From a virus, in IMG/VR virus record IMGVR_UViG_2786546475_000019, positions 974 through 64,973 of that record: a stretch of DNA of 64,000 bases. One strand, written 5' to 3'. The first letter of the stretch is position 1; the number at the start of each line of letters is the position of its first letter. Positions 358 to 60,403 of the stretch are shown here, piece by piece. Made by a program: the position numbers and the translations under genes. The notes below the pieces were generated by a model. The model worked only from the letters and a program-made list of their open reading frames with translations. It did no database searches and was not told the DNA's origin.

Positions 358-685
358 GCTCAACTGCCCTATATTAGATACTTCGGTGTAGTCAATTTGA
401 CTACATGATAGATCGGCGATTTTGCCTAAATCCAAGGCATCGCTGCCCACGGTATAGGCACAAGGATATTAGACGGTAAAAACCGACATATTGTGAGCTT
501 TCCAGATCGCTTTCCCGAAAACTAAGTGTCCAGTAACTATTTCAAAGTATTTTCACGCGGGGAAAACCGATGAATGGGAGCCGCAGACAGCGTGCCTAAA
601 ATTCAGGCAGGTATAATTGGGGCGTTCCAAGCGAACACGGGCAAGCCAAGCCAAATTCGGCACGCTTGTCAAGTTCCACGGGACT

Positions 686-792
686 CGCTACACTGTATGC
701 TGTAGCGTTTGATCTTTGACAATTTGGTTTCTAGTTGGCGGTTAAACTCGCTACGCGGTCCAAATATCGCGGACCACGTAGCGAGTTTAACC
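686..792. repeat. 7-bp hairpin (686-707) and a long inverted repeat with 22-nt arms and one mismatch (740-761 / 771-792); both share the ACTCGCTAC/GTAGCGAGT core
   Basis: GGTTAAACTCGCTACGCGGTCC versus GGACCACGTAGCGAGTTTAACC. Confidence 0.85.
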
Positions 793-2217: not shown

Positions 2218-2232
2218 AAACCCTTAGCCGCG

Positions 2233-2263
2233 GACCGGTCCAATTTGGACCGGTCTATTTTTA
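2233..2263 (+). terminator. rho-independent terminator candidate
   Basis: GACCGGTCC-AATTT-GGACCGGTC (9-bp stem) followed by TATTTTTA, 16 nt after the stop codon. Confidence 0.7.
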
Positions 2264-2612: not shown

Positions 2613-2676
2613 TTCTGAATTTTTTCAGAATTAGGGGCAATCCGTCCTGCCCTCATTCGTATCTATAGGGAAGTCC
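2613..2676 (+). promoter_or_regulatory. promoter-like module A1: palindrome TTCTGAA-N4-TTCAGAA, then TTTTCA-N6-GGGGCAATCC-N11-CATTCGTATCTATAGGGAAGTCC
   Basis: one of three copies with identical geometry (others at 59266-59322 + and 58653-58708 -); 12 nt before ATG 2688. Confidence 0.6.
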
Positions 2677-2687: not shown

Positions 2688-3257
2688 ATGATAATGACAA
2701 GAAAACTTTATCCAGCATTACCTGATCACCCTGAGTACCGTTGCAAGTCCACGGCTCAAAACAAACATTGTACGTTTCTATCATGTGACGGACTTCGCAA
2801 ACTGAATCTGTACGACGATCCAAGGCAATCTGATAAATGTCCCAAGCACGCCGGACGACCACCAAGTAAACAAACAGCTTTGGCAAAGTACATGGACACC
2901 CATCCTCATGAGGTGGGTTATCATTTGCCGGACCAAGCACCAAAGGTGCATTCCCAATCCCGAAGTGTCGCCGAAGAACTTCACATTCTCCGCACACTTC
3001 TTCAAAACACCCTGAACCAATGCAATACGTCGCTCGACTTACTCGCTAACACTGAGCGAATGACAGTCTTAAGTGATAAGATTGCTAACTTGATAAAAAC
3101 TGACGTATTCCTCGAAGAAAAAACAAAGAACTCCTTGACGCGGGACCAAATCATGGCCGTGCTCTCGGAGATACAACAAGTGATAACTCGGCATTGTTCG
3201 CCGGAGCAGGTCGCACTGATCCGTCAAGACTTCCAAGAACTAACCATTCCTGACTAA
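2688..3257 (+). CDS. hypothetical protein, first gene of the rightward structural operon
   Basis: 189-aa ORF directly downstream of module A1. Confidence 0.6.
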   Translation: MIMTRKLYPALPDHPEYRCKSTAQNKHCTFLSCDGLRKLNLYDDPRQSDKCPKHAGRPPSKQTALAKYMDTHPHEVGYHLPDQAPKVHSQSRSVAEELHILRTLLQNTLNQCNTSLDLLANTERMTVLSDKIANLIKTDVFLEEKTKNSLTRDQIMAVLSEIQQVITRHCSPEQVALIRQDFQELTIPD

Positions 3258-44770: not shown

Positions 44771-44790
44771 GATAAGCTCCTAGTATTTCC

Positions 44791-45816: not shown

Positions 45817-46369
45817 TGAACCTTTCTAGAAACTCAGGGGCACAGACCGTGGGTCGTGTGTCTTCGAAATCCGTAACACTCAGTGGGAGGCCGAAACCAA
45901 TTGCCCCGTCGAAAGGGTAGTATGCTGCAATGTAACTTTTAAGATAGCCGAACGTCTGTATCGGCTCCGACTTTCCCGCGTATCGATACCCATGTTTCAC
46001 GAAGCAATTGATAACATCAATGGCTTCTTGCGACGTGTTGCACTCGACTTGGAATCCTGACAACCAAACGTTCGCCTTACGTGCACGTCGGAAGTGTTCA
46101 GGTTTAGTCACTGAAAAGATCGGCGGCTCTTTGTCCGTCCACGGCCTCCACTGGTTGTCCAAGATTGAATAATACTCAAGCTCGCCGTCGAGGTACACCG
46201 ACCACGCCTCTTTATACTCAGGTAAGATGGTGCGGTATTCTTGGTCGAGAGCCCAGTTCGGGTTAACAGGAATAAAAGCCCAAGGGCTAGTAGACGTCCT
46301 AGTCCAAACTTCTGCTTCTTGGTTCAGGGCCCATTTGATAATTTCGTCTGCATGTTTGTGTTTCATCAC
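45794..46369 (-). CDS. hypothetical protein, paralog of 41564..42001
   Basis: MMKHKHADEIIKWALNQEAEVW...YRTILPEYKEAWSVYLDGELE. Confidence 0.55.
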   Translation of the reverse strand: MMKHKHADEIIKWALNQEAEVWTRTSTSPWAFIPVNPNWALDQEYRTILPEYKEAWSVYLDGELEYYSILDNQWRPWTDKEPPIFSVTKPEHFRRARKANVWLSGFQVECNTSQEAIDVINCFVKHGYRYAGKSEPIQTFGYLKSYIAAYYPFDGAIGFGLPLSVTDFEDTRPTVCAPEFLERFNDDNSNA

Positions 46370-46998
46370 TCAACTCCTCCAAATAAATTGTCTTGACACG
46401 TTTGACACAAGCCACTGATTTGATATTCGCGGATACTGGCTTCGTCTTCGAAATTGTCAGCAATGTTCCCACACCCAATGGGGCTTGGCACACATTGAGC
46501 TTGTTTGATACAACGCCTACGGTCCTTGCCCAACTGTTTAGTTAAAGCTGCTTCAATTGCTTCGTCTTTAACGGTAGGCGTATACCGTTTGATAAACTTT
46601 TCGACTTTCTCCAAGTTATCACGCCATTCAAAATTTCCTAAATACCAAAACGTATTTTTAGGGCAATCTTCTGTCCCGTAAAATGCCCACAATCCTTCTA
46701 GTCGCCCGGAACGACATTGATCAATAGCGTTTTCAAAAGCGTTCAAATCATCAAAGTCAAAGTCCAAGAACTTAGCCCTTGACTCACAGTCCCAAATTAC
46801 GGAAGTGGTTAACCGCTTCTCCGCTATTTTTTGGATAGTACAGGTCGCGGCACAGCCTATACAAATGCCTTCTCGTTGAGCACCCCAAGACCCCATATAC
46901 ACTTCAAAGTCCGGGGCTTTATCAAATTCTTTTAGCGAGTCAACCATGACTTGCAACGCGTCGATTGGAGTGGGGACTATTTCTTTGATACTTTTCAT
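46366..46998 (-). CDS. hypothetical protein
   Basis: 210-aa ORF, ATGA overlap. Confidence 0.5.
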   Translation of the reverse strand: MKSIKEIVPTPIDALQVMVDSLKEFDKAPDFEVYMGSWGAQREGICIGCAATCTIQKIAEKRLTTSVIWDCESRAKFLDFDFDDLNAFENAIDQCRSGRLEGLWAFYGTEDCPKNTFWYLGNFEWRDNLEKVEKFIKRYTPTVKDEAIEAALTKQLGKDRRRCIKQAQCVPSPIGCGNIADNFEDEASIREYQISGLCQTCQDNLFGGVE

Positions 46999-47576
46999 AA
47001 TGATAATGCCTTAATGATAAGGGACGCTCGGATAGTTTCTGCTTCAATTTGAGCTTTTTTAAGCTCTTTCTCGTAGGTTCGCTTGGTCCGGGACCCTAGC
47101 CCCTGTTCCAAGTCCCAATAACGAGGGGTTACGTACTCCATTACAGACGTGGCAAATTGGCTTTCAGCTTCACACTCTAAAGCAATTTGTGCTTGGTCGC
47201 CTTGAGCCGAGTAGCCTAAGTATAAAAAGTCTTCTTTAGCCGCCCGGAAAGCAGCGACTCGTATGCACATTTTCATCGCATTGATAATATGAGACTGTTC
47301 CATATCCTCAATGTTAATGCTTTTGCCTCCTTTCATAATCCAGGTCGGTTTACGTAAATACTTGGAAGCGTGAGCACTTTTCACTGTGGAGCGTACTCGA
47401 CTGTTCCAAATCTCTAAATACGTCTTTTGAAGGTAACCCGCTTTTCGAAGTTTTTCCTCAAGCTGGCGAAGCTTTTTATCAATGTGACGATGTTTTGTAG
47501 CTCGTCTGGAGTCATCACTATGTTCGTAAGTTACGTCAAAAGTGTTGAGTAACTCTTTGTACTCCTCTAAACTCAT
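46995..47576 (-). CDS. hypothetical protein
   Basis: start moved to ATG 47576 (AAGGAG RBS, ATGA overlap with the upstream stop). Confidence 0.5.
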   Translation of the reverse strand: MSLEEYKELLNTFDVTYEHSDDSRRATKHRHIDKKLRQLEEKLRKAGYLQKTYLEIWNSRVRSTVKSAHASKYLRKPTWIMKGGKSINIEDMEQSHIINAMKMCIRVAAFRAAKEDFLYLGYSAQGDQAQIALECEAESQFATSVMEYVTPRYWDLEQGLGSRTKRTYEKELKKAQIEAETIRASLIIKALSL

Positions 47577-47993
47577 GATATCTCCTTTTGGTTGTACCTG
47601 GCCCATATTTTTTTCATTTTATCAACTGGAACATCTCCAATGAAAAGAAAACGAATGCTGAGAGATAATTGAATCATGTCCCACGAAACTTTCTCTCCAT
47701 CGTCGAACTCAATCATAGGCTCTAAAGACCCATGATCGTTAAGAAAAATACCGACATATGTGGCCCTCGTAACTTTATCAATGTCTCCATATTGATTGAA
47801 CCATGTGAACTTTTTATCACGTACCGCATCCACTTGGTGCGTGGCCAAGAACTCGACTTCGGGTACTGTTTTAAGGTTCTTGAAAGGTACACCTGCGTGA
47901 CAAAGGGCTTTCTTCCCGTCAACAATGATAAAATCTCCTGTAAATGGAAGGTTACGAAAAATCCGTGATTTCAGTTATTGCGTATTTTTTCAT
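47573..47993 (-). CDS. hypothetical protein interrupted by a 1-nt frame change at a T5 run (A5 on + at 47957-47961)
   Basis: the 13-codon ORF from ATG 47993 (TAATG-coupled) and the start-less upstream extension of 47573..47848 join into one 139-aa reading (MKKYAITEITDFRNLPFTGDFIIVDGKK...) if one T is removed. Confidence 0.45.
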
Positions 47994-48277
47994 TACGAGT
48001 CTCCTAAAAAGAATTTATGGCTTATTTTATCATCAAGAATGTTTTCGACTTCTTCCCAAGTTGTAATTCCTTGGTATCCTCGTCCGTCGTACTCAAGAAC
48101 AACGTCTCCAAAGGTTAAGTCCCACGTGAACTCAAGCACGGCCCACACTCCATCTGCGTACTGGCACAGAAAAGAGCCTTGTTGCAAAGGACATTTTCCA
48201 TCAAGGAAAGAAGCGGCTTGCTCTGTAAAATCGGAGTCTTGGTTTTTAACAAAGTCAAGTAATGTATCAAAGTTCAT
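47993..48277 (-). CDS. hypothetical protein
   Basis: 94-aa ORF. Confidence 0.5.
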   Translation of the reverse strand: MNFDTLLDFVKNQDSDFTEQAASFLDGKCPLQQGSFLCQYADGVWAVLEFTWDLTFGDVVLEYDGRGYQGITTWEEVENILDDKISHKFFLGDS

Positions 48278-48281
48278 TTTT

Positions 48282-48650
48282 TTATCCTTGTGGAAAATAA
48301 TGATTTAAAAAAGGTTCCAAGGCCCGGGCACAACGAGCACATGAGTGTTCCCAGTCCCCGTTATCACTTAACTCCCCGTGGCCTACTTGATACGTGCCGT
48401 TAGTATGGAGCGTCACTTGGCAACGTCCGCCACACTCAATACCGATACTCTTGTTGTGAGATTTGATAATCTCATCAGCGATCTCGTAACACGGAGCTTC
48501 AACAACAATGTACGTATCAGGGGCGTTGACCATTACTACTACTACTGCGTAAGATTTACGCCCCATTCCCCGCTCATTAACACCTAGCCGCCACTCCAGA
48601 GAGCAGGCTTTTTCTTGAAGAAAACGTAATCGTTTCAAAGCTCCATTCAT
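48282..48650 (-). CDS. hypothetical protein
   Basis: 122-aa ORF. Confidence 0.5.
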   Translation of the reverse strand: MNGALKRLRFLQEKACSLEWRLGVNERGMGRKSYAVVVVMVNAPDTYIVVEAPCYEIADEIIKSHNKSIGIECGGRCQVTLHTNGTYQVGHGELSDNGDWEHSCARCARALEPFLNHYFPQG

Positions 48651-48850
48651 ACCACGCTCCTTGTTGCTTTAGTTTCATCTCCAAGGCCCACGACAGGAAC
48701 TATCAATTCCCCGTTTGGGACAGGGACCGTGACTTCTTCTGGCAATTCAAACCAGTAGTTATAGTGTCGTCCACAAGGGAATTCCACTTTGATAGCTACC
48801 TTAGCTACTGAATCCCTTGTACTTTCTTTGATTCCTTCTTGGGTAATCAT
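48647..48850 (-). CDS. hypothetical protein
   Basis: 67-aa ORF, ATGA overlap downstream. Confidence 0.45.
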   Translation of the reverse strand: MITQEGIKESTRDSVAKVAIKVEFPCGRHYNYWFELPEEVTVPVPNGELIVPVVGLGDETKATRSVV

Positions 48851-48910
48851 TGTTAAACTTTCTGTAAAGTGAGTATAGTCCGTAAATAAACACTAATAAG
48901 TAAAGCATCC

Positions 48911-48944
48911 TGCTCCCCTTTGCTCCCCTTTGCTCCCCTTTGCT
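48911..48944. repeat. 10-bp tandem repeat TGCTCCCCTT x3.4 (AAGGGGAGCA on the - strand)
   Basis: exact units at 48911, 48921 and 48931 in a 101-nt intergenic gap. Confidence 0.9.
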
Positions 48945-48951
48945 TCATTCG

Positions 48952-49341
48952 CTAGTTAAGACCTGGAAATGTACCCATGATACTTCCAAAGTGTTCCAAA
49001 CCCCCTAGCCCCAAGTAGTACCGCTCCACATCGATATCTAATAAATGATAGTGTGCGTTGTACAGCTCTAAATAATCTAAATATCGTTTGATAATTTCAG
49101 CTTGTGTCTCTCCTTTACAAAGAGACTCACGACTTATTGCATATACGTAACGATATATTCCCTTATTCTTAGGGACTGGGTTCTCCCATAAATGTTGTTG
49201 CACGTAATCTACGCCTAGAAGCACTAGGCTGTCAACGTACGTGCAAGTATCAGCGTCCATCTTATGTCCAATGATACTGAGATGTAGCTTTAGGTCCATC
49301 TCCAAAGCCCATGGACCTACTTGCTTTTGCCATTCGGTCAT
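48952..49341 (-). CDS. hypothetical protein
   Basis: 129-aa ORF, GGAGAG RBS. Confidence 0.5.
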   Translation of the reverse strand: MTEWQKQVGPWALEMDLKLHLSIIGHKMDADTCTYVDSLVLLGVDYVQQHLWENPVPKNKGIYRYVYAISRESLCKGETQAEIIKRYLDYLELYNAHYHLLDIDVERYYLGLGGLEHFGSIMGTFPGLN

Positions 49342-49508
49342 TTGTCTCTCCGTACAGGTAGATGGTAATATTGGCCGTGTTCTTCAAACAAACATCTGAT
49401 AAAAATGTTCACTTTTGACATTTCTGTCCACGGCCCTTTAGAGGCCATCCAAATTACAAAAAGTCCGGCCCCCAATATTAAAGCCATTGATAAAGCTTTG
49501 TGTTTCAT
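49338..49508 (-). CDS. small membrane protein (56 aa)
   Basis: start moved to ATG 49508, behind the conserved GAAAGGAATATCATG of cassette B1; hydrophobic LSMALILGAGLFVIWMA. Confidence 0.45.
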   Translation of the reverse strand: MKHKALSMALILGAGLFVIWMASKGPWTEMSKVNIFIRCLFEEHGQYYHLPVRRDK

Positions 49509-49527
49509 GATATTCCTTTCTAAACAA

Positions 49528-49578
49528 GTAAACAACGGTCCACGCTCCATGATACTTGGAGCGTGGTACGTTGGCTAC
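49528..49578 (-). promoter_or_regulatory. intergenic stem-loop cassette B1
   Basis: - strand GTAGCCAACGTACC-ACGCTCCA-AGTATCA-TGGAGCGT-GGACCGTTGTTTAC; starts 9 nt after the upstream stop. Confidence 0.7.
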
Positions 49579-49586
49579 TCTTACCG

Positions 49587-50147
49587 TTAGGTAGACTCAA
49601 ACGTTACGATATCCGGGTCTTGTAGCCCTCCGCCTAAGTCGGAAGCTTTCAACTCAAATTCGTAATTAACTCCACGGAACCCCGTGAAGTTATCACCGAC
49701 CCAGCCGTCGAAAGTGAACTCAACCCGCACCGTGACAGTAGGAGCGGGAATAGCTACTTCCTCAATGAATACGTCGGTCCAGCCTTGACCGCCAGAACCT
49801 CCATTAAGCGGGTTAGTGTTGTTTCCCCAATTCATAGGAAATTTTATAGTTTCCGTCACGCTCACGGGACCATTTGGGCCTTCTACCACGACAGTGTGGT
49901 CAACCATTTGATAAGTTCTCACGTGAACTGCAAGCCACTCCAAACGATTGTCAACCCACCAAGTTGCAGTTAAGTTAACTTTTGTAACGTCCCCGGCTGA
50001 GACTTCCGTGACTCCCATTGAGGCGGAGCTGTAGTAGTCTCCGGAAGTGCCGTGCACCGGGTTGTTGCCGCCTCCGCCTACTTGACCGTAAGCAGTTGTT
50101 GCTACGAGCAACAGAATAGTAAACAACACAAGTGATAAAATACGCAT
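49587..50147 (-). CDS. secreted protein
   Basis: signal-like MRILSLVLFTILLLVATTAYGQ; AAGGAG RBS. Confidence 0.55.
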   Translation of the reverse strand: MRILSLVLFTILLLVATTAYGQVGGGGNNPVHGTSGDYYSSASMGVTEVSAGDVTKVNLTATWWVDNRLEWLAVHVRTYQMVDHTVVVEGPNGPVSVTETIKFPMNWGNNTNPLNGGSGGQGWTDVFIEEVAIPAPTVTVRVEFTFDGWVGDNFTGFRGVNYEFELKASDLGGGLQDPDIVTFEST

Positions 50148-50176
50148 AGTCTCTCCTTAAAAGAGTAAAGATTTGT

Positions 50177-50188
50177 GGTCCGTGGACC
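50177..50188. promoter_or_regulatory. palindrome GGTCCGTGGACC (identical 12-mer at 2566-2577)
   Basis: lies in the 42-nt gap between two - strand genes. Confidence 0.5.
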
Positions 50189-50189
50189 A

Positions 50190-50981
50190 TCATTTAGTAG
50201 GACGACACAATGCTCGTGTCTTCCAGTAGTTGAAGCTACGTTCCAACTCTTTGACGAACGCTTCCGCATCCATCTGAGTATCAGTGCCGCCGTCGCTGCC
50301 GAAGTGGTTGTGCAGCAACGTTTCAGGTTTCATCGGAGCATTCAGGTCTTCTAAGTCCACCCCAGCGTTGACTGAGATGATATTCCACCGCCCGTAGGCT
50401 TGTTCTCCGCTCTCATAGAGCACGTCTCGATGATAAAGGACGACTTCGACGTGGCAGGCGGCGGCCTTATTTACGCCGTCCAAGTATTCATGCCGACGTG
50501 GCGACTCGCCGTCACGTCGTGGCTTATACTCCACGATCAAAGTATCATTGTTCCGAAGCTTACGAATAGGGCAATAAACCCCGTTCGCGTCAATCGGAAC
50601 GATGATAACTCCGTCTCTATAGCCGGGACGCTGCTCGTGAAATCGGGCTTGTACCTGTTCAACGAGCACTTCGTCTGAGAACTTCCAGTGGGAGAACTCA
50701 CTATTGGCTGTCTGCCGACTAACGAAGTCGTGGACCGCTACGTCTGGAGCTGGGTTGCTCCAGTTCTGTTGCGTAACCTGCAACACGGTGGGTTCTCCAT
50801 TAGGGTGGATCGCCGCTTTGTCCCTTGGCTCGTAGTCATAAATGAAGGTATCTCCGTCCGAGGATTGAAGGGCATTACGCCCCGATCCATCTTCTTCTGC
50901 GTCGCCGTAGGGGACGTAGCCGTTTTTAAGAAGTATGATAAATTCGTCGTTACTTAACATTTGTTGGTTGTCAGTTTTCAT
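50190..50981 (-). CDS. hypothetical protein
   Basis: start moved to ATG 50981 behind AACAGGAGAGCGAG, the same RBS block as at 51730. Confidence 0.5.
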   Translation of the reverse strand: MKTDNQQMLSNDEFIILLKNGYVPYGDAEEDGSGRNALQSSDGDTFIYDYEPRDKAAIHPNGEPTVLQVTQQNWSNPAPDVAVHDFVSRQTANSEFSHWKFSDEVLVEQVQARFHEQRPGYRDGVIIVPIDANGVYCPIRKLRNNDTLIVEYKPRRDGESPRRHEYLDGVNKAAACHVEVVLYHRDVLYESGEQAYGRWNIISVNAGVDLEDLNAPMKPETLLHNHFGSDGGTDTQMDAEAFVKELERSFNYWKTRALCRPTK

Positions 50982-50998
50982 CTCGCTCTCCTGTTTAT

Positions 50999-51283
50999 TT
51001 AACAAGCTTTCCATTCAGCAATAAGTTTAGCAGCTTCGGGTGAGACTTTCACCCACTGTTTCACTGAAATGTCCTCATGGGTTTCAACAGCTGCCGTGAT
51101 ACGTGTGTTGGTCTTCGGACCATTAGCCGCTAAGCCAAAGAGTCCACCGCACTCAGAACTCCAGTAAAGGACCATTCGAGCGTTTCGCAATTTGATAGGC
51201 TTTCCAGCTTCGGGGTCTTTGTCCGCCATACCGATTATAACGGCTCGTCCGTTTTCCCCGCAACAAACTAGATACATCGACAT
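50999..51283 (-). CDS. hypothetical protein
   Basis: 94-aa ORF. Confidence 0.5.
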   Translation of the reverse strand: MSMYLVCCGENGRAVIIGMADKDPEAGKPIKLRNARMVLYWSSECGGLFGLAANGPKTNTRITAAVETHEDISVKQWVKVSPEAAKLIAEWKAC

Positions 51284-51284
51284 T

Positions 51285-51629
51285 TCAGTCTCCTCTTATC
51301 AATTGATAAATTTCTTTGTAAGTATGTACTGGCATATTATACTTGTCCGCTATATCCTGCCAGTTCTCTTCCCACCAGCTAAAAGAATGACACTGACCCC
51401 CAACTTTCAACACTCCAAAGTCTTGGTTGACTTCTACTTTGCGGCCGTGTAAAATTCCGAGTGTTATCAGTTTGCCGTAGCCGTAGCCGTAGCCGTAGCC
51501 GTAGCCGTCGCCGTCGCCGTAGCCGTCGCCGTAGCCGTAGCCGTAGCCGTAGCCGTCGCCGTAGCCGTAGCCGGTCCCGTAGCCGGTCCCGTAGCCGGTC
51601 CCGTAGCCGTCGCCGTGGTTACTTAACAT
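51285..51629 (-). CDS. protein with an N-terminal Gly-Tyr(-Asp/Thr) repeat region
   Basis: GDGYGTGYGTGYGTGYGYGDGYGYGYGYGDGYGDGDGYGYGYGYGYG followed by a ~60-aa non-repetitive domain. Confidence 0.55.
   Translation of the reverse strand: MLSNHGDGYGTGYGTGYGTGYGYGDGYGYGYGYGDGYGDGDGYGYGYGYGYGKLITLGILHGRKVEVNQDFGVLKVGGQCHSFSWWEENWQDIADKYNMPVHTYKEIYQLIRGD
51474..51616. repeat. hexanucleotide microsatellite (GCCGTA/GCCGTC/GCCGGTCCCGTA variants) encoding the GY repeats
   Basis: about 143 nt of near-perfect 6-nt periodicity. Confidence 0.9.
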
Positions 51630-51640
51630 TTGATAGTTCC

Positions 51641-51730
51641 TTATAAATGATCAACTTTGGTCTTTGCTTCACGCGGACCGATGTACGGTTCCAACGTAAA
51701 TAAGTCATTGATATTTTCACATAGTTTCAT
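51641..51730 (-). CDS. tiny coupled ORF (29 aa)
   Basis: ATGA overlap with the TraR/DksA stop; preceded by AACAGGAGAGCAAG, nearly identical to the RBS block of 50190..50981. Confidence 0.35.
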   Translation of the reverse strand: MKLCENINDLFTLEPYIGPREAKTKVDHL

Positions 51731-51933
51731 CTTGCTCTCCTGTTTGCTCGCTTAGCGAGTCGTTGAGTTTCAGGATCGTCCGGAAGTATCACTAGCGATC
51801 CTGCGGTCTTATGGCCGTACACCATGTACCCTGTAGCACGCTCCGTGGTGCTACAGGTTGCACACGTCATTGTGTGCGGAAGTACCTCTAAGCGTTCACT
51901 ATCAATTTGTGTTTTGCAGTTTATGCAGTTCAC
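51727..51933 (-). CDS. TraR/DksA-family C4 zinc-finger protein
   Basis: CINCKTQIDSERLEVLPHTMTCATC. Confidence 0.55.
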   Translation of the reverse strand: MNCINCKTQIDSERLEVLPHTMTCATCSTTERATGYMVYGHKTAGSLVILPDDPETQRLAKRANRRAR

Positions 51934-52178
51934 TCTTGCTCCTTCCAGAACTTGATATTTTTGACAACCCCTTCGGCGAGGTCAGCGATAGAATCTATCA
52001 CTTCTCGCTCACAACCGGGAATGGTGTAGAAGTAATTAAACTCCCCACCCTCGGTGAAGGTAACAAGTTGCGTGAAGCGACCCTTGTTTATCTTGGACAA
52101 GTGCCAGTAGACTTCGCGAACGCCTTCGTTAAGAAAAATGTAACAGGGAGTTTCGCCAATGACTTTAGTTTCGTACAT
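51930..52178 (-). CDS. hypothetical protein
   Basis: start moved to ATG 52178 behind GAAAGGATTATCATG (same RBS block as the B cassettes). Confidence 0.45.
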   Translation of the reverse strand: MYETKVIGETPCYIFLNEGVREVYWHLSKINKGRFTQLVTFTEGGEFNYFYTIPGCEREVIDSIADLAEGVVKNIKFWKEQE

Positions 52179-52188
52179 GATAATCCTT

Positions 52189-52518
52189 TCAGATTGAGTA
52201 AGTGCGAGATTGAAGTGCTTGTTTCGGTTCACGGCCCTTGTACTTAGTTCCAGGCTGCTCGAACCACGTTCCACGTGAGATGTGAATATCCAAGTCAAGA
52301 TATTCATACTTCGGGACGTTATAATAGTCTGCTAAGTCGTAAACGTCCAGATTATCAAGATCTGGAATTGGTCGCAACGTAATATGCGACAGTACGTAAG
52401 CCGCCACATTACGTTGCTTACGCTTGAGCGTTGGGTTAGCCGCTTGGACCGTGGCCCACAGCCGCTCAAAAGACTCTAGAGTTGGACACAACTCAATGAT
52501 AGATACTCTCTTAGACAT
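52189..52518 (-). CDS. hypothetical protein
   Basis: start moved to ATG 52518 (ATGTCTAA overlap with the upstream stop). Confidence 0.45.
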   Translation of the reverse strand: MSKRVSIIELCPTLESFERLWATVQAANPTLKRKQRNVAAYVLSHITLRPIPDLDNLDVYDLADYYNVPKYEYLDLDIHISRGTWFEQPGTKYKGREPKQALQSRTYSI

Positions 52519-53062
52519 TGGCCACGGCTCCCATCTTAAGAACCTTGGCACACATTGCCAACAATTTGGCGTGGTGTCGGGGAGCTTCAACATGGTTCTC
52601 GAACCATGAATCATCCGCCCCACATGGTAGCTTGACTCCCCCGGCTCGGAAGTATTGATAATTGTGCCGTGCGACACGGGCATTGTCCCGTGCATTGAGC
52701 AAGCACTCCCGTCTCGTGGCCCGTGGCGGACGAAGATGGTCGAATTTCATCAAAAGAACGCTATCAATGGAAGATTTCCCGCATCCTGCGTCTCGCAGCG
52801 TGCGAATATCATCCGCTGCGGCTTTGCGAGCGGTTCGAACCCACTCAATATGGGCCAGAGCTTCCCGATAAAGGTCGATCTGTTCGCTGATCCAGTAGCC
52901 AAGGGTGGCCTCAAAATCATGGAGAGTTACTTGATAGTCCAGAGTTCCGACCCAACGTAGCGGGGTGCCTGGAATGTAAGCTTTGTAGTCGTGGCCGGAA
53001 GCCTCGACCTCGACAGGCAAATCGTTGACGTAGAACATTCCAAGAGGTTGCATAGCTTTCAT
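52511..53062 (-). CDS. hypothetical protein
   Basis: start moved to ATG 53062 behind cassette B2. Confidence 0.5.
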   Translation of the reverse strand: MKAMQPLGMFYVNDLPVEVEASGHDYKAYIPGTPLRWVGTLDYQVTLHDFEATLGYWISEQIDLYREALAHIEWVRTARKAAADDIRTLRDAGCGKSSIDSVLLMKFDHLRPPRATRRECLLNARDNARVARHNYQYFRAGGVKLPCGADDSWFENHVEAPRHHAKLLAMCAKVLKMGAVANV

Positions 53063-53087
53063 GATAATCCTTTCAAGTGAGAAAAAA

Positions 53088-53134
53088 GTAAACAACGGTC
53101 CCTGCACCTCACGAGTGCATGGTACGTTGGCTAC
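53088..53134 (-). promoter_or_regulatory. intergenic stem-loop cassette B2
   Basis: - strand GTAGCCAACGTACC-ATGCAC-TCGTGAG-GTGCAG-GGACCGTTGTTTAC, then TTTTTTCTCACTTGAAAGGATTATCATG. Confidence 0.7.
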
Positions 53135-53144
53135 TGGCTTGCTA

Positions 53145-53570
53145 CTAAACAATTGCCCTCTGATTCAGTTCAGGAACAACAGTGTGAGCTATCAATATCC
53201 CAAGCTTGACGCCCCAGTTGACGAGTCTTTGATAAGCTTCGTCCAGCTCCGCCAACGTCTTATATTTAAGGGTCAGCCCGCTGATTAGCAAAGGCTCACC
53301 GTCGCGAGTCGCTCGCAACACGCATTTCCCGTCCCCGGTTGTGATAGAAAAGCTGCATTTATCAGCTAGTCGTAGCTGCGGTATGCCAACCATGTTCAAT
53401 TTTCGTCGAACGTATTGGCGAGCCGCCTGGGAGTCCGTAGCATACGTGACCTTGAGGTGCTCAATAATTTGTTGAGTGTCGGACGTGCCATACAGCTCCT
53501 GAAGTCGCTGATCGGTCTCAAACATCAGAAGTTGCTCGATGAAATTCCAAGTCGTGTGATTGTTAATCAT
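53145..53570 (-). CDS. hypothetical protein
   Basis: 141-aa ORF behind cassette B3. Confidence 0.5.
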   Translation of the reverse strand: MINNHTTWNFIEQLLMFETDQRLQELYGTSDTQQIIEHLKVTYATDSQAARQYVRRKLNMVGIPQLRLADKCSFSITTGDGKCVLRATRDGEPLLISGLTLKYKTLAELDEAYQRLVNWGVKLGILIAHTVVPELNQRAIV

Positions 53571-53591
53571 GATAATCCTTTCAAGAAATTA

Positions 53592-53638
53592 GTAAACAAC
53601 GGTCCATGCACCTCATGGGTGCACGGTACGTCAGCTAC
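53592..53638 (-). promoter_or_regulatory. intergenic stem-loop cassette B3
   Basis: - strand GTAGCTGACGTACC-GTGCACC-CATGA-GGTGCAT-GGACCGTTGTTTAC. Confidence 0.7.
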
Positions 53639-53645
53639 CAACTAC

Positions 53646-54014
53646 TTATACTTCAGTCCGCCACTTAAGCCAGAATTCCAACATAGCGTTAAAGTTGTGG
53701 TAAGTCCCGTCGTCTTCGACGTTATGATAATCTTCAAGGTCCAACGGGGCGAACTCCTCAAGTGTCTCACGCAACGGTCTGACGGTGTGTGAACCATTCG
53801 TTGAGTAAGAATATGAAACTTCCGTTAACGCCTCACATCGCACAATAAAGGTTTCGAAAGTTTTCTCAAGCCGAGATTGGAGCCTGCGATCTTTGATTTC
53901 TCGAACTATCAGTACCGGGGTTCCTGGTCCTTTGACCAATAACCCTTTCTTGATTTCGATTCGGTTCTCTTTGACTTCTCGACAGATTTTGAACAACATA
54001 GACTTAGCTTTCAT
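53646..54014 (-). CDS. hypothetical protein
   Basis: 122-aa ORF behind cassette B4. Confidence 0.5.
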   Translation of the reverse strand: MKAKSMLFKICREVKENRIEIKKGLLVKGPGTPVLIVREIKDRRLQSRLEKTFETFIVRCEALTEVSYSYSTNGSHTVRPLRETLEEFAPLDLEDYHNVEDDGTYHNFNAMLEFWLKWRTEV

Positions 54015-54038
54015 GATAATCCTTTCAAGTGAGAAACA

Positions 54039-54085
54039 GTAAACAACGGTCCGGGCTACCCGTGGGCAGCACGGTACGTTGGCTA
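54039..54085 (-). promoter_or_regulatory. intergenic stem-loop cassette B4
   Basis: - strand TAGCCAACGTACC-GTGCTGCCCACGGGTAGCCC-GGACCGTTGTTTAC. Confidence 0.7.
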
Positions 54086-54093
54086 TTGATAGA

Positions 54094-54113
54094 CCTAGGC
54101 CCGAAGGCCCAGG
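54094..54113 (-). promoter_or_regulatory. stable hairpin with a UUCG tetraloop in - sense (CCUGGGCC-UUCG-GGCCUAGG)
   Basis: 8-bp stem; the single non-Watson-Crick pair is G-U in - sense but A-C in + sense. Confidence 0.55.
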
Positions 54114-54168
54114 ATTAAATCCAGATTGTCAAAGATCAAAATTATCATTTGTGTCCCGCCACTGGCGG

Positions 54169-54284
54169 AAATGATATGATAGCTTACAGACCTACGGTCA
54201 ATCTATTCTATACTTAATATCGGCAATTGGGAAGTAAGAAAATAGATTATTTTTGAAAATAATCAAAACTTTATCATATCATTT
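54169..54284. promoter_or_regulatory. operator pair AAATGATATGATA (54169-54181) / TATCATATCATTT (54272-54284) bracketing the palindrome GATTATTTT-TG-AAAATAATC (54245-54264)
   Basis: exact reverse-complement 13-mers; the identical pair occurs at 59227/59347. Confidence 0.7.
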
Positions 54285-54285
54285 T

Positions 54286-54627
54286 TTACACTGTTTCCTT
54301 CTCAATGATAATCCCATTGATTTCGAATTGGTTCGTGACCATATGCCAATGCATATCATTATACAGGAACCGATAGCAAGTTCTCCGATACCTGAACTCG
54401 TGACTAGGCCCATGGGCCGTGTACTCGGGTGTAGGCCATTTATCAATGTACCCTGTTAGAGACACGGACCTTTCATCTGGAAAAAAGAATTCAGGCTCTT
54501 GGACCTTGATCAATTCATCGTTGGACAAGTTACGGAGCCAAAGCCTATCTTCATCAAGATGATAATTTGCCTGCCACTCAAACCAAGCTTCAAACTCAGT
54601 CATGAAACAGTATGGGTTTCTGTTCAT
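54286..54627 (-). CDS. hypothetical protein
   Basis: start moved to ATG 54627 (GGGAG RBS, 1 nt after the methylase stop). Confidence 0.5.
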   Translation of the reverse strand: MNRNPYCFMTEFEAWFEWQANYHLDEDRLWLRNLSNDELIKVQEPEFFFPDERSVSLTGYIDKWPTPEYTAHGPSHEFRYRRTCYRFLYNDMHWHMVTNQFEINGIIIEKETV

Positions 54628-55979: not shown

Positions 55980-58586
55980 TTAAGTTGCCCTTTCTCCCTT
56001 AATCGTTTCCCTTTTAACACCGTCTGGAGTTTCAACAAAACGAAACCCGTTGTCTTTCGGAGCTTCATACGAGAAGCGAACATTGTAGATACATGTCTTT
56101 TGCATCTCGTCAATAGCTATCAAATACATTTCCGCTAGGTTCTGTTCGAACTTCTTACGATTTGCTCGCCCCCCGTCGTCCATGTAGTTCTTATACAGAA
56201 GTTGAAGCTCCACTTTTGATCCAGGCTGTTCTTGGAGCACGGACCGTGCAAAGAGTTCAACGTCGGTTCGGTTCAAGTCCGCAGCTTGCTCTTTATCAAC
56301 CGTATCCACAACAGGAACATTCAAACGCCCCTGAGTTGGCGGTATTTGATACGCTAACAAGGCATACAGAAACGCGGGAGCTTGAGCTTCCAGTTGTTCC
56401 AAAAGAAGTTTCTTTGGAATAACTTTATCTGGCTTCTTGGGTACATTGATAACCGTGATTCGGGTGTCTCCGGGAAGTATCGGACAGAACTCACGATTGT
56501 TCGCGGTGTGAATCCAATGCGACGTATTAGGTATCATGTAAGCGGGCTTGCCTTTTGTGTTGACTGAGATTACTTTGGACGTAACATAGTCTTTAACTTT
56601 TTGATAAACAGTGGAGTCCGAGTTCAAGTTAATCTCCTCAAGAACGCAAAGCACCGCCCCAGCAAGTTCACTGTTGAACGAGCTGACTAACGCGTTCTCC
56701 GCTCGAACGACACCGGGACTAAACAACAATGATAATGCTTCATGCAAAATCGACTTCCCGGTGTCTTGCTCCGTGGAATACAAAAACAGAAACGGCAAAG
56801 GTTCAAACGGTTGTTGTATCAATGACGCGACCCACGCAAACAGATAGTCGTGTCCTTTGCAAATACCGTTCTCCGTGAACCAATTATCCTTACGAACGTA
56901 TTGATCTAGAGAGTGTCCGATATGGTCCAGAATCTTCATCCAAAGATCAAAGTTTCCTTCTTCTGGAGTGTGTCGCAGTTGAGCAGCTCCCCGATTCCAT
57001 AAACGATTACCCGGATATTCAGACTCAAAGGGTCGTGAAACAATGTTCCAGGGCTTCATGATAGCTTCACCCTGCATCTGCTGAATCTCTTTAGTGTTCA
57101 TTCCTTGGCTTTTGAGACCGAGCGTCAGGTTGGCGATCGGTTCTTCGATCCAACCGTTATCATGCGTCTCAATAGCCCAACCGGCGTCCACGCTACCCAT
57201 AATCATGTGACGAATCTGCGTATTCGTGTCCACGTCATACGGGCTACCAGTACGAGACTCTTTTATCACTTTCAACCAACGTGTTCCTTTTGCGATCCAA
57301 CCTTCAATGCCGCCTGGGTCGCCTTTGATTTTCGGAATCTCAATTTTAAGCTTGTTTTCCTTTAGCTGAGTGACAGTTGCTTGACGAGCTATCAATACTT
57401 CGTCAATGGCTTGCATTTCATGTTGCTGGAAAAGCTTAGTCAATTTATGAGCAGGAAGCACCATTCCTTTTTTATCATCTTCTAACGCTCCTGAATCTTT
57501 CACCAAGGTCCAAAGCGGTGGAACATAATTCAAATACGTGCGAGTCCATCCGTTCTTCGTGGTCCACGATTCATGTTCCTTGGCTTCGTTGCCATATCGG
57601 TACACGGCCCATGCTCCGTGTGGAAGCGGATACGCGAAGCAGTTCTGTTTGTGGAGATCAGTTCCGTCACTGATAGTCTGGAAATCGCCTTTAAACCCGA
57701 GTTCTTTGGAAGCTTGCTCCAATAGTTTAGTGTGCGTGATAAACATCTTTCCTTCCGCGTTCCAGTAACCAAACGCGGAGTTGTTATTCATCCACTCAAG
57801 CAAACGCTCATGTTCTTCTTCAAGCGTCACGGACTGTTTGTGCTTGATAATTTCTTCCATACGGTCATCAGCATAAGAGTGTTTCTTCTTACCGCTCACG
57901 ACGCCAATATGATCTCGCCATCCCAGCGGCTCTTTGATATGGGCCTCAGCTTCCTTAATAATTTGAAAGCCGTTCTCTCCCGTTTTCCGTGACCATACCC
58001 ACATATTACAACCGAAAACATCAACTGCAAGGTCAAAGTCGAAACCAGTCTCAAGACATAGTTGACTCAGAACGCCGCGAGCAAGAGCAGCGTGTTCTGC
58101 CCGACTTGTCGTAGTGATAAGGTCTTCAAAGAAAACATATAAGTGGTAGCCAGCTCCACTTTTAGATCGTTGTACTCGCACCCAAGGTACGTTACACGCT
58201 CGTTGTTGAATATCAAGTAGATCAGTCTGCGTTAGCTTGTGCTTGTGCCGAGCTGAGTGGCCCACGATACCGTCAAAGTCGAAAGCAACATATCGCGAGA
58301 TGCATTGCCCAAAGTCCCACCCCGATAAACCAACCATTGAGGCGTGATCTTCCAGGCTGAACTTGATATTTCCTTCATCGTATTTGCCATCAATTCGAAA
58401 ATTCTTCCAGACTTGAACACCGTCAGTCCACTCCCGGTAGGTCCGACCTTTGTATTCCTTATCAACAGGCTCGCCGCCATCAGCGGCTACGTTTACTTGA
58501 ACTTCCATTGTAGGCGAGTATAACGCCGCCATGTGGGGTTCTGCGTTATCACGCAAGAATCGTTCTAAAGCTTCACTTTTACGCAT
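55980..58586 (-). CDS. AEP primase-polymerase fused to an SF3 (D5/P4-type) helicase
   Basis: VAFDFDGIV and SKSGAGYHLYVFF (AEP motifs); Walker A STEQDTGKS in the C-terminal half; start set to ATG 58586 (GAGG RBS), track start 58592 is TTG. Confidence 0.8.
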   Translation of the reverse strand: MRKSEALERFLRDNAEPHMAALYSPTMEVQVNVAADGGEPVDKEYKGRTYREWTDGVQVWKNFRIDGKYDEGNIKFSLEDHASMVGLSGWDFGQCISRYVAFDFDGIVGHSARHKHKLTQTDLLDIQQRACNVPWVRVQRSKSGAGYHLYVFFEDLITTTSRAEHAALARGVLSQLCLETGFDFDLAVDVFGCNMWVWSRKTGENGFQIIKEAEAHIKEPLGWRDHIGVVSGKKKHSYADDRMEEIIKHKQSVTLEEEHERLLEWMNNNSAFGYWNAEGKMFITHTKLLEQASKELGFKGDFQTISDGTDLHKQNCFAYPLPHGAWAVYRYGNEAKEHESWTTKNGWTRTYLNYVPPLWTLVKDSGALEDDKKGMVLPAHKLTKLFQQHEMQAIDEVLIARQATVTQLKENKLKIEIPKIKGDPGGIEGWIAKGTRWLKVIKESRTGSPYDVDTNTQIRHMIMGSVDAGWAIETHDNGWIEEPIANLTLGLKSQGMNTKEIQQMQGEAIMKPWNIVSRPFESEYPGNRLWNRGAAQLRHTPEEGNFDLWMKILDHIGHSLDQYVRKDNWFTENGICKGHDYLFAWVASLIQQPFEPLPFLFLYSTEQDTGKSILHEALSLLFSPGVVRAENALVSSFNSELAGAVLCVLEEINLNSDSTVYQKVKDYVTSKVISVNTKGKPAYMIPNTSHWIHTANNREFCPILPGDTRITVINVPKKPDKVIPKKLLLEQLEAQAPAFLYALLAYQIPPTQGRLNVPVVDTVDKEQAADLNRTDVELFARSVLQEQPGSKVELQLLYKNYMDDGGRANRKKFEQNLAEMYLIAIDEMQKTCIYNVRFSYEAPKDNGFRFVETPDGVKRETIKGERAT

Positions 58587-58603: not shown

Positions 58604-58618
58604 AAATTGATATCATTT
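58604..58618. promoter_or_regulatory. near-palindromic operator-like site AAATTGATATCATTT in the primase leader
   Basis: related to the AAATGATA / TATCATTT half-sites. Confidence 0.45.
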
Positions 58619-58652
58619 TCGATAACAGATTCGAGAAAGCCCGAAACAACCA

Positions 58653-58708
58653 GACTTCACCCTATAGCTACGAGTGGCGGGATATCGGATTGCCCCACAA
58701 AATGAAAA
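58653..58708 (-). promoter_or_regulatory. promoter-like module A3
   Basis: - strand TTTTCA-TTTTGT-GGGGCAATCC-GATATCCCGCC-ACTCGTAGCTATAGGGTGAAGTC, about 70 nt upstream of ATG 58586. Confidence 0.6.
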
Positions 58709-58793
58709 TAAATCGAGTTAATGGAAATTGATACGAAACTTTAATGACGTTTCCAGTGCAGCGTTATCATTATTCTCTCACGTACGCGAAGCC

Positions 58794-58932
58794 ATTAACG
58801 TTTTTGATACTCAAACCTTTAATTTAAGCTTCTACTTCTTATGGGTACGAGGTGAAAGTAAAATATAGTAGTAGTGTAAATATTATAAGGATTTCAGCCG
58901 CTCAGGCGAGCTTCTGATAAGAAAACGTTAAT
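58794..58932. repeat. 11-bp inverted repeat ATTAACGTTTT / AAAACGTTAAT flanking a very AT-rich stretch
   Basis: arms at 58794-58804 and 58922-58932; related TTTTACGTTAAAT at 58941. Confidence 0.7.
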
Positions 58933-59017
58933 GAGCCAAATTTTACGTTAAATTGGTATGTTTCGACGGGAATTGATACCGTCTCACTGCTCTCCTCCCG
59001 AACCTTGCATCTTGGCT

Positions 59018-59058
59018 CACGCTACACGTATCACGCTACACGTATCACGCTACACGTA
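59018..59058 (+). repeat. tandem 14-mer CACGCTACACGTAT x2.9
   Basis: units at 59018, 59032 and 59046; followed by ACGT/CGCGTG-rich repeats up to 59225. Confidence 0.9.
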
Positions 59059-59142
59059 CGCGTAGCACGTGGGTACGTGCCAGGGCCAAAGACCTTGAGT
59101 TCTCTTTTAAGTCTCGGAACTGACGTGTAAATTAGTAAGCGG

Positions 59143-59169
59143 TTATCATTTTGCGTGAGCAAATGATAA
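59143..59169. promoter_or_regulatory. inverted repeat TTATCATTT-N9-AAATGATAA
   Basis: perfect 9-bp arms. Confidence 0.6.
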
Positions 59170-59226
59170 TTCTCGCGTGCTCCCGCGTGTCCCGCACGTG
59201 CGACTATTTAAATACGCGACGTGCGT

Positions 59227-59359
59227 AAATGATATGATACATGGTTTTCAAAATACTTGAAAATATTTTCAAAATACGGGGCAATCCTGCCCGGTTTTAT
59301 TCGTAGCTATAGGGGGAAAGTAGACTGTTTTACTTTCCAAAACGACTATCATATCATTT
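59227..59359. promoter_or_regulatory. operator pair AAATGATATGATA (59227-59239) / TATCATATCATTT (59347-59359) bracketing module A2
   Basis: exact 13-mers identical to the 54169/54272 pair. Confidence 0.7.
59257..59322 (+). promoter_or_regulatory. promoter-like module A2: palindrome TTGAAAATATTTTCAA, then TTTTCA-N6-GGGGCAATCC-N11-TATTCGTAGCTATAGGGGGAAAGT
   Basis: same 29-nt spacing from GGGG to CTATAGGG as A1 and A3. Confidence 0.6.
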
Positions 59360-59374: not shown

Positions 59375-60403
59375 ATGGCAGAAGAAACTCAAGCTACCGA
59401 AACTATCATTTCAGAAGGATTGACTCAAGAGCAGTTCGAATCCGTGGGTAGCGACATTCAGGCGATTTCTATCAATGAGATCACCGTCCCTGAAGTTAAG
59501 CTTCGTGGCGTGAACACCGAAGGGGAAGAATACTTGGAACTCAAGGATTCTATCAAATCGCAAGGACTGTTGCAGAACATTACTGTACGTCCCGTCGAAA
59601 TCGCTGGCAAGCAAGGCTACGAACTTATCACTGGGCTCCAGCGATATACTGCTTGCAAGGAACTCGGACATGAGACTATCGACGCTCGTGTGAAAGAAAT
59701 GTCCGAGCAAGAAGCTTGGTTGTGGATGATCCACGAAAACACTCAACGTGTTACGCAAAAAGCGTCAGATATCACCAAGCTCTTGAAGCGTCTGATCGCC
59801 AAAGATCCAACGATGTCTATTCCACGACTCGCGAAGCTTTTGTCGAAGTCCGTGCCCCAAGTACAGAACTATCTGGCACTTGATAAACTGACCGACGAGG
59901 CAAAGGAATTGGTCGATGATGAAACCATCGGTTTGACCAACGCAGTTGCTCTCGCCAAGCTCCCACCTGAGGAGCAGGAAGACTTGCTTGCTGACGCGTC
60001 AACAATGACCGTTGCTGAATTTGTTCCACTTGTAAACGAACGAAAAGAAAAGGTTGATCAAGCCAATCGTGAAGCTCGTGAACAGGAAAAGAACACGTTT
60101 TCTCCGAAACCAAAAGCTCGCAAGAAAGACGATCTCGTCACCGAGCTTGGAATTATCATGGGCACGGAGACTGGCACTTCGCTTCTTATGGAGTGCTTGA
60201 ACGGTCAGGATGTTGATACTTCCAACCAGAATGTCAAGGCAGTTATCACTCAGACAATGGAGTGGGTCCTGAACCTTGATCCAGCGTCCGTCGACGCTCA
60301 ACGAGCGAAATGGGAAGACGCCAAAAAGAAGCGGGAAGAACGAGAAAAAGCGAAAGCTGCCGCTCGTGCCGAACGTGAAAAGGCGAAAGCCCTGGAAATC
60401 TAA
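59375..60403 (+). CDS. ParB-like N-terminal domain protein
   Basis: LKDSIKSQGLLQNITVRPV...YELITGLQRYTACKELGHETIDARV; start set to ATG 59375 (GGAG RBS), track start 59360 is GTG; Lys/Glu/Ala-rich C-terminus. Confidence 0.75.
   Translation: MAEETQATETIISEGLTQEQFESVGSDIQAISINEITVPEVKLRGVNTEGEEYLELKDSIKSQGLLQNITVRPVEIAGKQGYELITGLQRYTACKELGHETIDARVKEMSEQEAWLWMIHENTQRVTQKASDITKLLKRLIAKDPTMSIPRLAKLLSKSVPQVQNYLALDKLTDEAKELVDDETIGLTNAVALAKLPPEEQEDLLADASTMTVAEFVPLVNERKEKVDQANREAREQEKNTFSPKPKARKKDDLVTELGIIMGTETGTSLLMECLNGQDVDTSNQNVKAVITQTMEWVLNLDPASVDAQRAKWEDAKKKREEREKAKAAARAEREKAKALEI

Follow-up and report, generated by a model that had tools for sequence, protein, structure and literature searches.

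What drives transcription of the long gene blocks of this uncultured marine phage? The 64,000-nt stretch of viral DNA analysed here (the window) carries a module of about 55 nt in three places, which a sequence-only reading had described as promoter-like. This raises the question of whether the module is a promoter and, if it is, which RNA polymerase and which sigma factor would read it. The window lies in a 72,328-bp contig from Tara Oceans (stations with metagenome runs ERR594309 and ERR594388), to which NCBI gives the label of an Acidobacteria MAG, and a differently permuted assembly joins the window's end to its start, so the genome is circular or circularly permuted, with a length of about 72.1 kb. 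Near-identity searches of deposited phages and plasmids returned no close relative, the deposited phages giving distant primase matches only. We predict that the modules are promoters of a single class, specific to the phage and used by bacterial (host-core) RNA polymerase holoenzyme, and put the probability that they are promoters at about 85%. Their promoter nature, the start site and the identity of the sigma factor that would read them are all inferred from sequence.

Layout and conservation of the module

Searching the window for GGGGCAATCC-N10-YAYTCGTAKCTATAGGG gave exactly three matches, where none was expected from 100 shuffles of the window, and they lie at the places that the sequence-only reading had named. 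Its written pattern needed one correction: with a spacer of N11 there are no matches, the true spacer being N10, which agrees with the 29 nt that it had counted from GGGG to CTATAGGG. The 37-nt cores occupy 2634-2670 (+), 58696-58660 (-) and 59278-59314 (+), and TTTTCA stands exactly 6 nt 5′ of block 1 in all three copies, as had been claimed. Looser sub-motif scans of the window revealed no further or weaker copy, and a profile search extended to the whole ~72-kb genome, a check that the sequence-only reading had proposed, found exactly three modules, all intergenic. The pattern has no match in IMG/VR or in the GTDB species genomes. As read, module 1 is ttttcattttgt GGGGCAATCC GATATCCCGC CACTCGTAGCTATAGGG tgaagtc, module 2 is ttttcaaaatac GGGGCAATCC TGCCCGGTTT TATTCGTAGCTATAGGG ggaaagt, and module 3 is ttttcagaatta GGGGCAATCC GTCCTGCCCT CATTCGTATCTATAGGG aagtcc (Table 1).

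Conservation within the module is sharply partitioned. Columns identical across the three copies make up 6/6 of TTTTCA, 1/6 of the six nucleotides that follow it, 10/10 of block 1, 0/10 of the spacer and 14/17 of block 2, while the flanks stay at background (4/48, 0/13 and 3/47). In each module, about 27-30 positions are held at fixed spacing. The difference between the two blocks and the spacer argues for selection on two blocks kept at a fixed distance, and because the unconstrained positions have been randomised, the copies must be old rather than products of recent duplication. Strain variants (99.7% identical) are uninformative here, the control region being unchanged among them. An RNA element or hairpin was considered and rejected, since the three copies share no fold (folding z-scores of -2.45, +0.49 and +0.18, with differing structures) and an Rfam search of the window returned no family match.

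Table 1. Coordinates of the modules, their neighbouring genes and other features discussed in the text (window numbering)
Feature	Position	Strand	Remarks
Intrinsic terminator	2232..2256	+	11-bp GC-rich stem and T-run; ends the upstream unit
Module 3	2622..2676	+	Faces ORF 2688-3257 and the 31-kb plus-strand block
Module 3, block 1	2634-2643	+	
Module 3, block 2 CATTCGTATCTATAGGG	2654-2670	+	Predicted start near G 2668
189-aa ORF	2688..3257	+	Function unknown; first gene behind module 3
Module 1	58653..58708	-	Faces the primase-helicase gene; TTTTCA 58708-58703
Module 1, block 1 GGGGCAATCC	58696-58687	-	Spacer 58686-58677
Module 1, block 2 CACTCGTAGCTATAGGG	58676-58660	-	Predicted start near G 58662
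Primase-helicase (DUF5906)	55980..58586	-	First gene behind module 1
Tandem iterons TCACGCTACACGTA	59017..59058		Three perfect 14-nt copies between the back-to-back modules
Module 2	59266..59322	+	Faces the ParB-like gene; TTTTCA 59266-59271
Module 2, block 1	59278-59287	+	Spacer 59288-59297
Module 2, block 2 TATTCGTAGCTATAGGG	59298-59314	+	Predicted start near G 59312
ParB-like protein (ParB_N + HTH_ParB)	59375..60403	+	First gene behind module 2
Sigma-70-family factor, 216 aa	37586..38236	-	Phage-encoded; regions 2 and 4 only; candidate module reader
Canonical-looking promoter candidate TTCCCA-N17-TAGAAT	54205..54233	-	Consensus match only; in a 264-nt gap
Canonical-looking promoter candidate TTGTCA-N17-TACACT	666..694	+	Consensus match only; precedes the module-less 453-aa gene

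Gene blocks and the primase/ParB locus

All three copies are directed at the first gene of a long block, facing ATG 2688, ATG 58586 (or TTG 58592) and ATG 59375, with module-to-start-codon distances of 20, 63 and 76 nt (70 nt if TTG 58592 is used). Modules 1 and 2 stand back to back between divergent genes. The minus-strand block runs from 58592 down to 33580 and contains the primase-helicase, a methyltransferase, many small ORFs, a DHH-family protein, the sigma factor, thymidylate synthase and an RNase T-like exonuclease, and the plus-strand block from 59375 encodes the ParB-like protein, an SNF2-type helicase, a second ParB_N protein, DNA polymerase A and a ligase-like protein. The remaining plus-strand block, from 2688 to 33612, spans 31 kb, and the sequence-only reading had called it a structural arm. 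It does hold structural genes in its later part (terminase at 13215, portal, capsid and tape-measure genes), but its first 10 kb or so carries unknown genes, a beta-helix glycosidase-like protein and an S8 peptidase. The modules had also been said to head all three transcription units of the window. This is true of the three large blocks, but a small divergent pair, formed by a minus-strand 258-aa gene and the 453-aa gene at 856-2217, has no module, so the modules head the three large blocks and not every transcription unit. The strong terminator located just before module 3, from which it is separated by repeat arrays, indicates that a new unit starts at this module.

The module has several features expected of a sigma-70-family promoter, namely two elements separated by a non-conserved spacer of fixed length (N17 in either of the two registers described below), together with an intergenic position, orientation towards a gene and placement at the beginning of a new unit. 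Position, orientation, the two conserved blocks with their randomised fixed-length spacer, the terminator and the equivalent pairs in relatives all support the description as promoter-like.

These equivalent pairs came from a survey of the primase-helicase locus. The protein has hundreds of relatives at 37-47% identity, and we compared 80 loci from metagenomes, 80 of 441 from IMG/VR and the closest relative, L084 (46%). Family-wide, the ParB-like gene, a 222-aa gene and the helicase are divergent from the primase, and the relatives' primase arm follows the order primase, methyltransferase, homologues of 35227-35655 and 34006-34593, and then convergent tail genes. Most of the ~125 distant relatives (>100) carry a back-to-back pair of their own in the primase/ParB intergenic region, composed of near-identical, genome-specific 40-mers that face outward, and no further copy was seen in the 10 kb to the left or right. 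In L084 the pair reads aaatttttccgttcaaa-N7-cccattcgggtWacttRcgggagaStct, with the same two-block layout as in the window, and it is homologous to the window's pair at the same locus (E 1e-8 to 1e-11, nhmmer with a window + L084 profile). The same DNA profile matched none of the other relatives' loci, and the distant pairs are therefore analogous in position and geometry, not detectably homologous. In the long contigs of four relatives no third near-exact copy was seen, strict patterns occurring twice only in a search that diverged copies would escape; to judge from these contigs, the third near-exact copy may be particular to the window's lineage.

A joint-score comparison against a column-shuffle null left 8 of 45 distinct pairs significantly sigma-70-like (L057, L010, L049, L159, L047, L071, L064 and L020), the other pairs being non-canonical, and the view that most relatives are sigma-70-like does not hold against this null. 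Near-consensus pairs occur at the same position in L010 (TTGACA-N17-TAATAT) and L057 (TTGTTA-N17-TATAAT). That the eight sigma-70-like pairs face outward indicates that the primase/ParB position holds promoters.

The same region also gives reasons to view the module not as a promoter but as a site bound by some DNA-binding protein of the phage (a regulator, the replication initiator or the ParB-like protein), located in the three main intergenic regions by coincidence. With about 27 constrained positions, the module is larger than contacts with sigma alone would normally require, the divergent pair lies on either side of iterons and other repeats of the kind seen at origins or partition regions (the iterons are probably a replication origin or an initiator-binding array), and in many relatives the pair amounts to a long inverted repeat around a central region of ~200 bp. 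Against this, every copy points at the next gene from 20-76 nt before its start codon, and module 3 sits far from the origin-like region, directly after a terminator. In addition, the blocks are not palindromic, unlike usual dimeric binding sites, the leaders already carry a separate operator-like box, AAATGATA, and the eight relatives show clear outward-facing -35/-10 hexamers at the equivalent place. Taken together, these features make a pure binding site improbable, and we retain the promoter reading.

Comparison with known promoter classes

If the module is a promoter, block 1 (GGGGCAATCC) would act as the -35 region, block 2 (YAYTCGTAKCTATAGGG) would carry the -10 region, the discriminator and the start site, and TTTTCA, fixed ~41-46 bp 5′ of the start, may serve as an UP-like element. 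Transcription is predicted to begin at or just after GGG, in one of two registers: GGGGCA-N17-TCGTAK with the start at GGG (register A), or GCAATC-N17-TAKCTA with the start 1-3 nt past GGG (register B).

This layout resembles canonical (group 1) sigma-70 promoters in being bipartite, in its ~17-bp spacer in either register, in the A/T-rich element upstream and in a purine start ~6-8 nt past the -10 region. It departs from them in the hexamers themselves, GGGGCA/TCGTAK or GCAATC/TAKCTA, and neither register combines A at the second with T at the last position of the -10 hexamer (-11 and -7, respectively). The claim that the module does not fit TTGACA-N17-TATAAT was borne out quantitatively: the best joint sigma-70 score of the modules is 3.82, below the mean of 4.56 under the null, and column shuffles reach at least this value in 98.8% of cases. 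The window modules are the least sigma-70-like in the family. GGGGCA retains the G, C and A of TTGACA at the third, fifth and sixth positions, which may suit the RERVRQ helix in region 4.2 of the phage sigma. A sigma-54 promoter (GG-N10-GC) was rejected by inspection; its second element would lie in the variable spacer.

The resemblance to ECF (group 4) promoters, AAC-N16/17-CGT, which the sequence-only reading had pointed out, is present in the DNA, where the AAT-N16-CGTA geometry recurs in three of three window copies. However, the -35 block has AAT rather than AAC, the homologous module of L084, the closest relative, has TCGGGT instead of the CGT, and the proteins do not support an ECF connection, no cognate ECF-type sigma having been found in the genome. 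Of the two sigma-like proteins reported earlier, the 216-aa protein is solid, with matches to Sigma70_r2 (4.6e-18) and Sigma70_r4 (9.6e-13) and to TIGR02937 above the cut-off. The 138-aa protein (33580-33996) is unconvincing, as its ECF-like matches are sub-threshold (32.6 bits vs a cut-off of 42.9; E 0.28 vs PDB). The nearest types of the 216-aa sigma are primary-like (SigA), RpoS and sigma-32 (RpoH), and it aligns to RpoS and SigA structures. In regions 2.3-2.4 it reads FSTYATPWVKQRMITY where RpoS has FSTYATWWIRQTIERA, and in region 4.2, which carries the RpoD-type RERVRQ helix, it reads ISRERVRQLEKRAL where RpoS has LTRERVRQIQVEAL. Its region 2 is closest to RpoS, SigA and RpoH types, and this sigma is therefore not ECF-like.

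Promoters of a phage-encoded RNA polymerase, of T7-type or otherwise non-canonical, were suggested by CTATAGGG, which is identical to the T7 consensus at positions -5 to +3 with its GGG start, and which has a similar equivalent, CTTACGGGAGA, in L084. As a mechanism, this resemblance finds no support. The absence of a single-subunit RNA polymerase, claimed earlier for the window, extends to the complete ~72-kb genome: no gene of the full genome (the window together with L081, L086 and L087) gave a match to an RNA polymerase family, single-subunit or multisubunit, and no frame contains DFDGD or T7-type signature motifs. The 616-aa protein, the largest of unknown function near module 3, is beta-helix glycosidase-like, its family profile matching beta-helix lacto-N-biosidases and a rhamnogalacturonan lyase. 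Moreover, a T7-type promoter is a contiguous conserved stretch of ~20-23 bp (-17 to +6), whereas the module's conserved sequence is split by the variable 10-nt spacer and, with a second block and TTTTCA both conserved, extends to ~-46, farther than a T7-type enzyme is known to make contact. Since no phage RNA polymerase gene is present, the T7-like CTATAGGG marks no T7-type promoter; such a polymerase is very hard to reconcile with the module, and the most plausible reading of this stretch is an A/T-rich segment for melting with a G start behind it. Proteins without annotation include those of 543 aa (3586-5217), 895 aa (26212-28899) and 453 aa (856-2217).

Phage and host sigma factors as candidate readers

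For a promoter of host-core RNA polymerase, the reader may be the phage sigma or a sigma factor of the host. We tentatively favour the phage sigma, in holoenzyme, as the main reader of the module, at a little below even odds. The modules are the least sigma-70-like of the family; canonical-looking candidates precede both the module-less units and the sigma gene; regions 2 and 4 of the sigma are complete, and its gene sits in a lineage-specific expansion, absent from relatives, that covers ~18 kb (roughly 36.3-54.6 kb); the window contains no other repeated intergenic motif on which it could act; and GGGGCA keeps the G, C and A of TTGACA. Region 4.2 and block 1 read SRERVRQ and GGGGCAATCC in the window, and SKQRVKQ and TTCCGTTCAA in L084. 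No relatives of the 216-aa sigma were found in IMG/VR.

The competing possibility, which we consider rather unlikely, is that a host sigma alone, either the primary one or one of the many alternative or ECF factors of a planctomycete-type host, reads the modules and that the phage sigma acts on other promoters. It draws on the relatives. A sigma HMM and iterative search covering 2.35 Mb of their loci detected sigma-like ORFs only in L084, L121, L039 (partial), L022 (partial) and L085. In L084, two sigma-like genes lie in tandem directly after the primase (its sigma-like protein is an orphan in searches), and the homologous module is the sole promoter visible before them, so host RNA polymerase would have to read the module there. 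In L121, a sigma-like gene accompanies a sigma-70-like pair, TTGAAA-N18-GATAAT, and in most relatives the pair is non-canonical although no sigma gene lies in the 10 kb to its left or right; a non-canonical sequence is thus not enough to imply a phage sigma, and the rule that a phage sigma goes with a non-canonical module was rejected on the basis of L121 and this survey. An RpoD-like region 2 would presumably require A at -11 together with T at -7, and neither register supplies the two.

The host itself adds to this uncertainty. Integrated relatives in megabase-scale contigs are nearly all in Planctomycetota, which, on the evidence of these contigs, are probably the hosts of the family. Members of this phylum are rich in alternative sigmas, and we found no description of its promoter consensus in the literature, which weakens the case for the phage sigma. 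In favour of a host sigma, AAT-N16-CGTA is compatible with ECF-type geometry. Several observations run against the host sigma in turn: the canonical-looking candidates at module-less units suggest that the host reads ordinary promoters, a single host sigma predicts a family-wide consensus whereas modules vary between genomes, the phage sigma would find no second repeated intergenic motif in the window to act on, and CGT is not kept in L084. The weight of the canonical-type candidates is itself limited, given that they match the consensus at 9/12 positions only, and a sigma-70 consensus scan of the left arm produced many weak matches and was not decisive.

Should the phage sigma be the reader, a simple order of events can be proposed. 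Host RNA polymerase would first read the module-less units and the left arm from canonical-type promoters, such as the one at ~54.2 kb, leading to synthesis of the sigma; with respect to transcription, the candidate at this site precedes the sigma gene, whose first expression it could therefore drive. The phage sigma would then fire the three large blocks, including the one that contains its own gene, thereby establishing positive feedback. A more specific version is speculative and, in our estimate, rather unlikely. Here a cut-down primary-like phage sigma (regions 2 and 4, with an RpoD-type 4.2 helix) would redirect the host's RNA polymerase to a bipartite 37-bp promoter without A at -11 and T at -7, and this promoter would, in the window's lineage, have replaced ancestral promoters at conserved positions and been added at a third site.

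Of the systems known, those nearest to the module are the promoters of phage-encoded sigma factors. Phage phiEco32 (gp36) and Salmonella phage 7-11 each carry a small sigma-70-family factor of their own, with a short phage-specific motif recurring before gene blocks (PMC12276001, PMC4331800). The proposed position of the sigma gene has a precedent in 7-11, which is related to phiEco32: host-type promoters and phage-sigma promoters both precede its sigma gene (PMC4331800). The present genome is similar in combining its own sigma-70-family factor with a recurring phage-specific motif before gene blocks. In contrast, the phage-sigma promoters of phiEco32 and 7-11 consist of a single element, AATGTA centred at -11.5 or TGATGT, without a -35 block, whereas the window module has two blocks at fixed spacing plus the upstream TTTTCA. 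It also occurs in only three copies, heading the replication blocks and the structural-gene block, and its dependence on the phage sigma is a prediction from sequence. The module is a new, lineage-specific example of a familiar type of element and points to no new mechanism or transcription machinery.

The module is well defined and experimentally tractable. If confirmed, it would provide a compact, highly specific promoter/sigma pair from an uncultured marine phage and possibly an orthogonal expression part, as well as a marker for annotating transcription units in an unstudied phage family with >440 relatives in IMG/VR. Were the retargeting sigma to prove real, a single phage protein would turn on the replication genes, the structural genes and its own gene at once, in a phage whose host phylum (probably Planctomycetota) has received little study. 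The family also illustrates how promoter pairs at one conserved genomic site change from genome to genome without losing their geometry.

Leader elements and module spacers

A AAATGATA-type box was identified in the transcribed leader of each of the three promoter-like modules and also downstream of the canonical-looking promoter candidate at 54.2 kb, and a 29-nt inverted repeat of this box flanks module 2, which faces the ParB-like gene, on both sides. In L084, the closest relative, CTATCATTTTT is found in the leaders downstream of both its modules. The AAATGATA-type box has the appearance of an operator at which a common regulator would act, distinct from the promoter module itself.

The nominally variable 10-nt spacers separating the two conserved blocks of the modules are all GC-rich, with 50-70% G+C compared with 45% in the window as a whole, and a run of CCC is present in every one. 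Pairing between this run and the block 1 GGGG is possible in modules 2 and 3 but is not consistent in module 1.

An inverted repeat, GATTTGATT...AATCAAATC, lies 30-90 nt upstream of the primase start in the primase leader of most relatives (including L006, L007, L008, L009, L012, L018, L049 and many others); this leader element is family-wide and acts either as an operator or as an RNA hairpin.

Repeat arrays and the expanded primase arm

The iteron region between the back-to-back modules is probably the replication origin or a binding array for the adjacent primase-helicase. A packaging site and a protein-binding array are both possibilities for the repeats between the intrinsic terminator and module 3. 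A further array, in L086, sits downstream of the gene that closes the ParB/polymerase block.

The primase arm of the window carries an expansion of ~18 kb (about 36300-54600) with ~40 mostly small ORFs, of which one encodes the sigma factor and another a DHH-family protein; relatives are devoid of this expansion, their primase arm being just 5-9 kb long. Within the left arm, hairpins are followed by a shared ACCGTTGTTT(ACT) tail, and two of them run on into near-identical leaders that end with TTGAAAGGATTATC shortly before a start codon. Such shared leaders suggest duplicated gene starts or processing sites.

Coordinates of repeats, leader boxes, hairpins and sigma-like genes
Feature	Position	Remarks
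AAATGATA-type box	58604-58619; 59227-59255 / 59331-59359; 2683-2697; inside gap 54015-54278; inside 1-855	
Module spacers	2644-2653; 58677-58686; 59288-59297	
Tandem iterons TCACGCTACACGTA	59017-59058	3 perfect 14-nt copies, halfway between the back-to-back modules
Repeats rich in CGCGTG/CACGTG	59154-59235	same inter-module region as the iterons
20-nt tandem repeats AATATCAACTAGCTGCACGC x3, with 14- and 21-nt GGACC-rich repeats	2273-2334; 2437-2513	between terminator and module 3
CCGCCCCAAGTTAGAACAGGTGATTTGTC x3 and ~40-nt unit x2	L086, about 20150-20440	just ahead of window position 1
Left-arm hairpins	53604-53626; 49540-49566; promoter-distal end of gap 54015-54278	
Sigma-like genes after primase	L084, 12594-13638; L121, 12702-13217; L039, 12669-13004	two in tandem in L084

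Other proteins and probable hosts of the phage family

Small sigma-like genes immediately follow the primase gene in three relatives; for the 176-aa sigma-like protein of L084, no other relative was found among 5.8 billion proteins. Some primase-helicase homologues are interrupted by a ~1-kb insertion (L070/L072, 10001-13528; protein P0029), and one homologue of 1259 aa has precomputed Pfam assignments to PF14528 and PF14890, both taken here as intein domains.

The 616-aa protein encoded at 5208-7058 of the window has no match in Pfam or PHROG. Because the profile of its family (318 representatives) matches beta-helix lacto-N-biosidases and one rhamnogalacturonan lyase, it is probably a polysaccharide depolymerase.

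Primase relatives are integrated in contigs or chromosomes 0.4-7.8 Mb in length (L176-L202, from genome contigs), nearly all of which belong to Planctomycetota (Pirellulales, Thermoguttaceae and Planctomycetia). Therefore, the hosts of this phage family are probably planctomycetes, and the 'Acidobacteria' label of the metagenome-assembled genome containing the window is likely a binning error.
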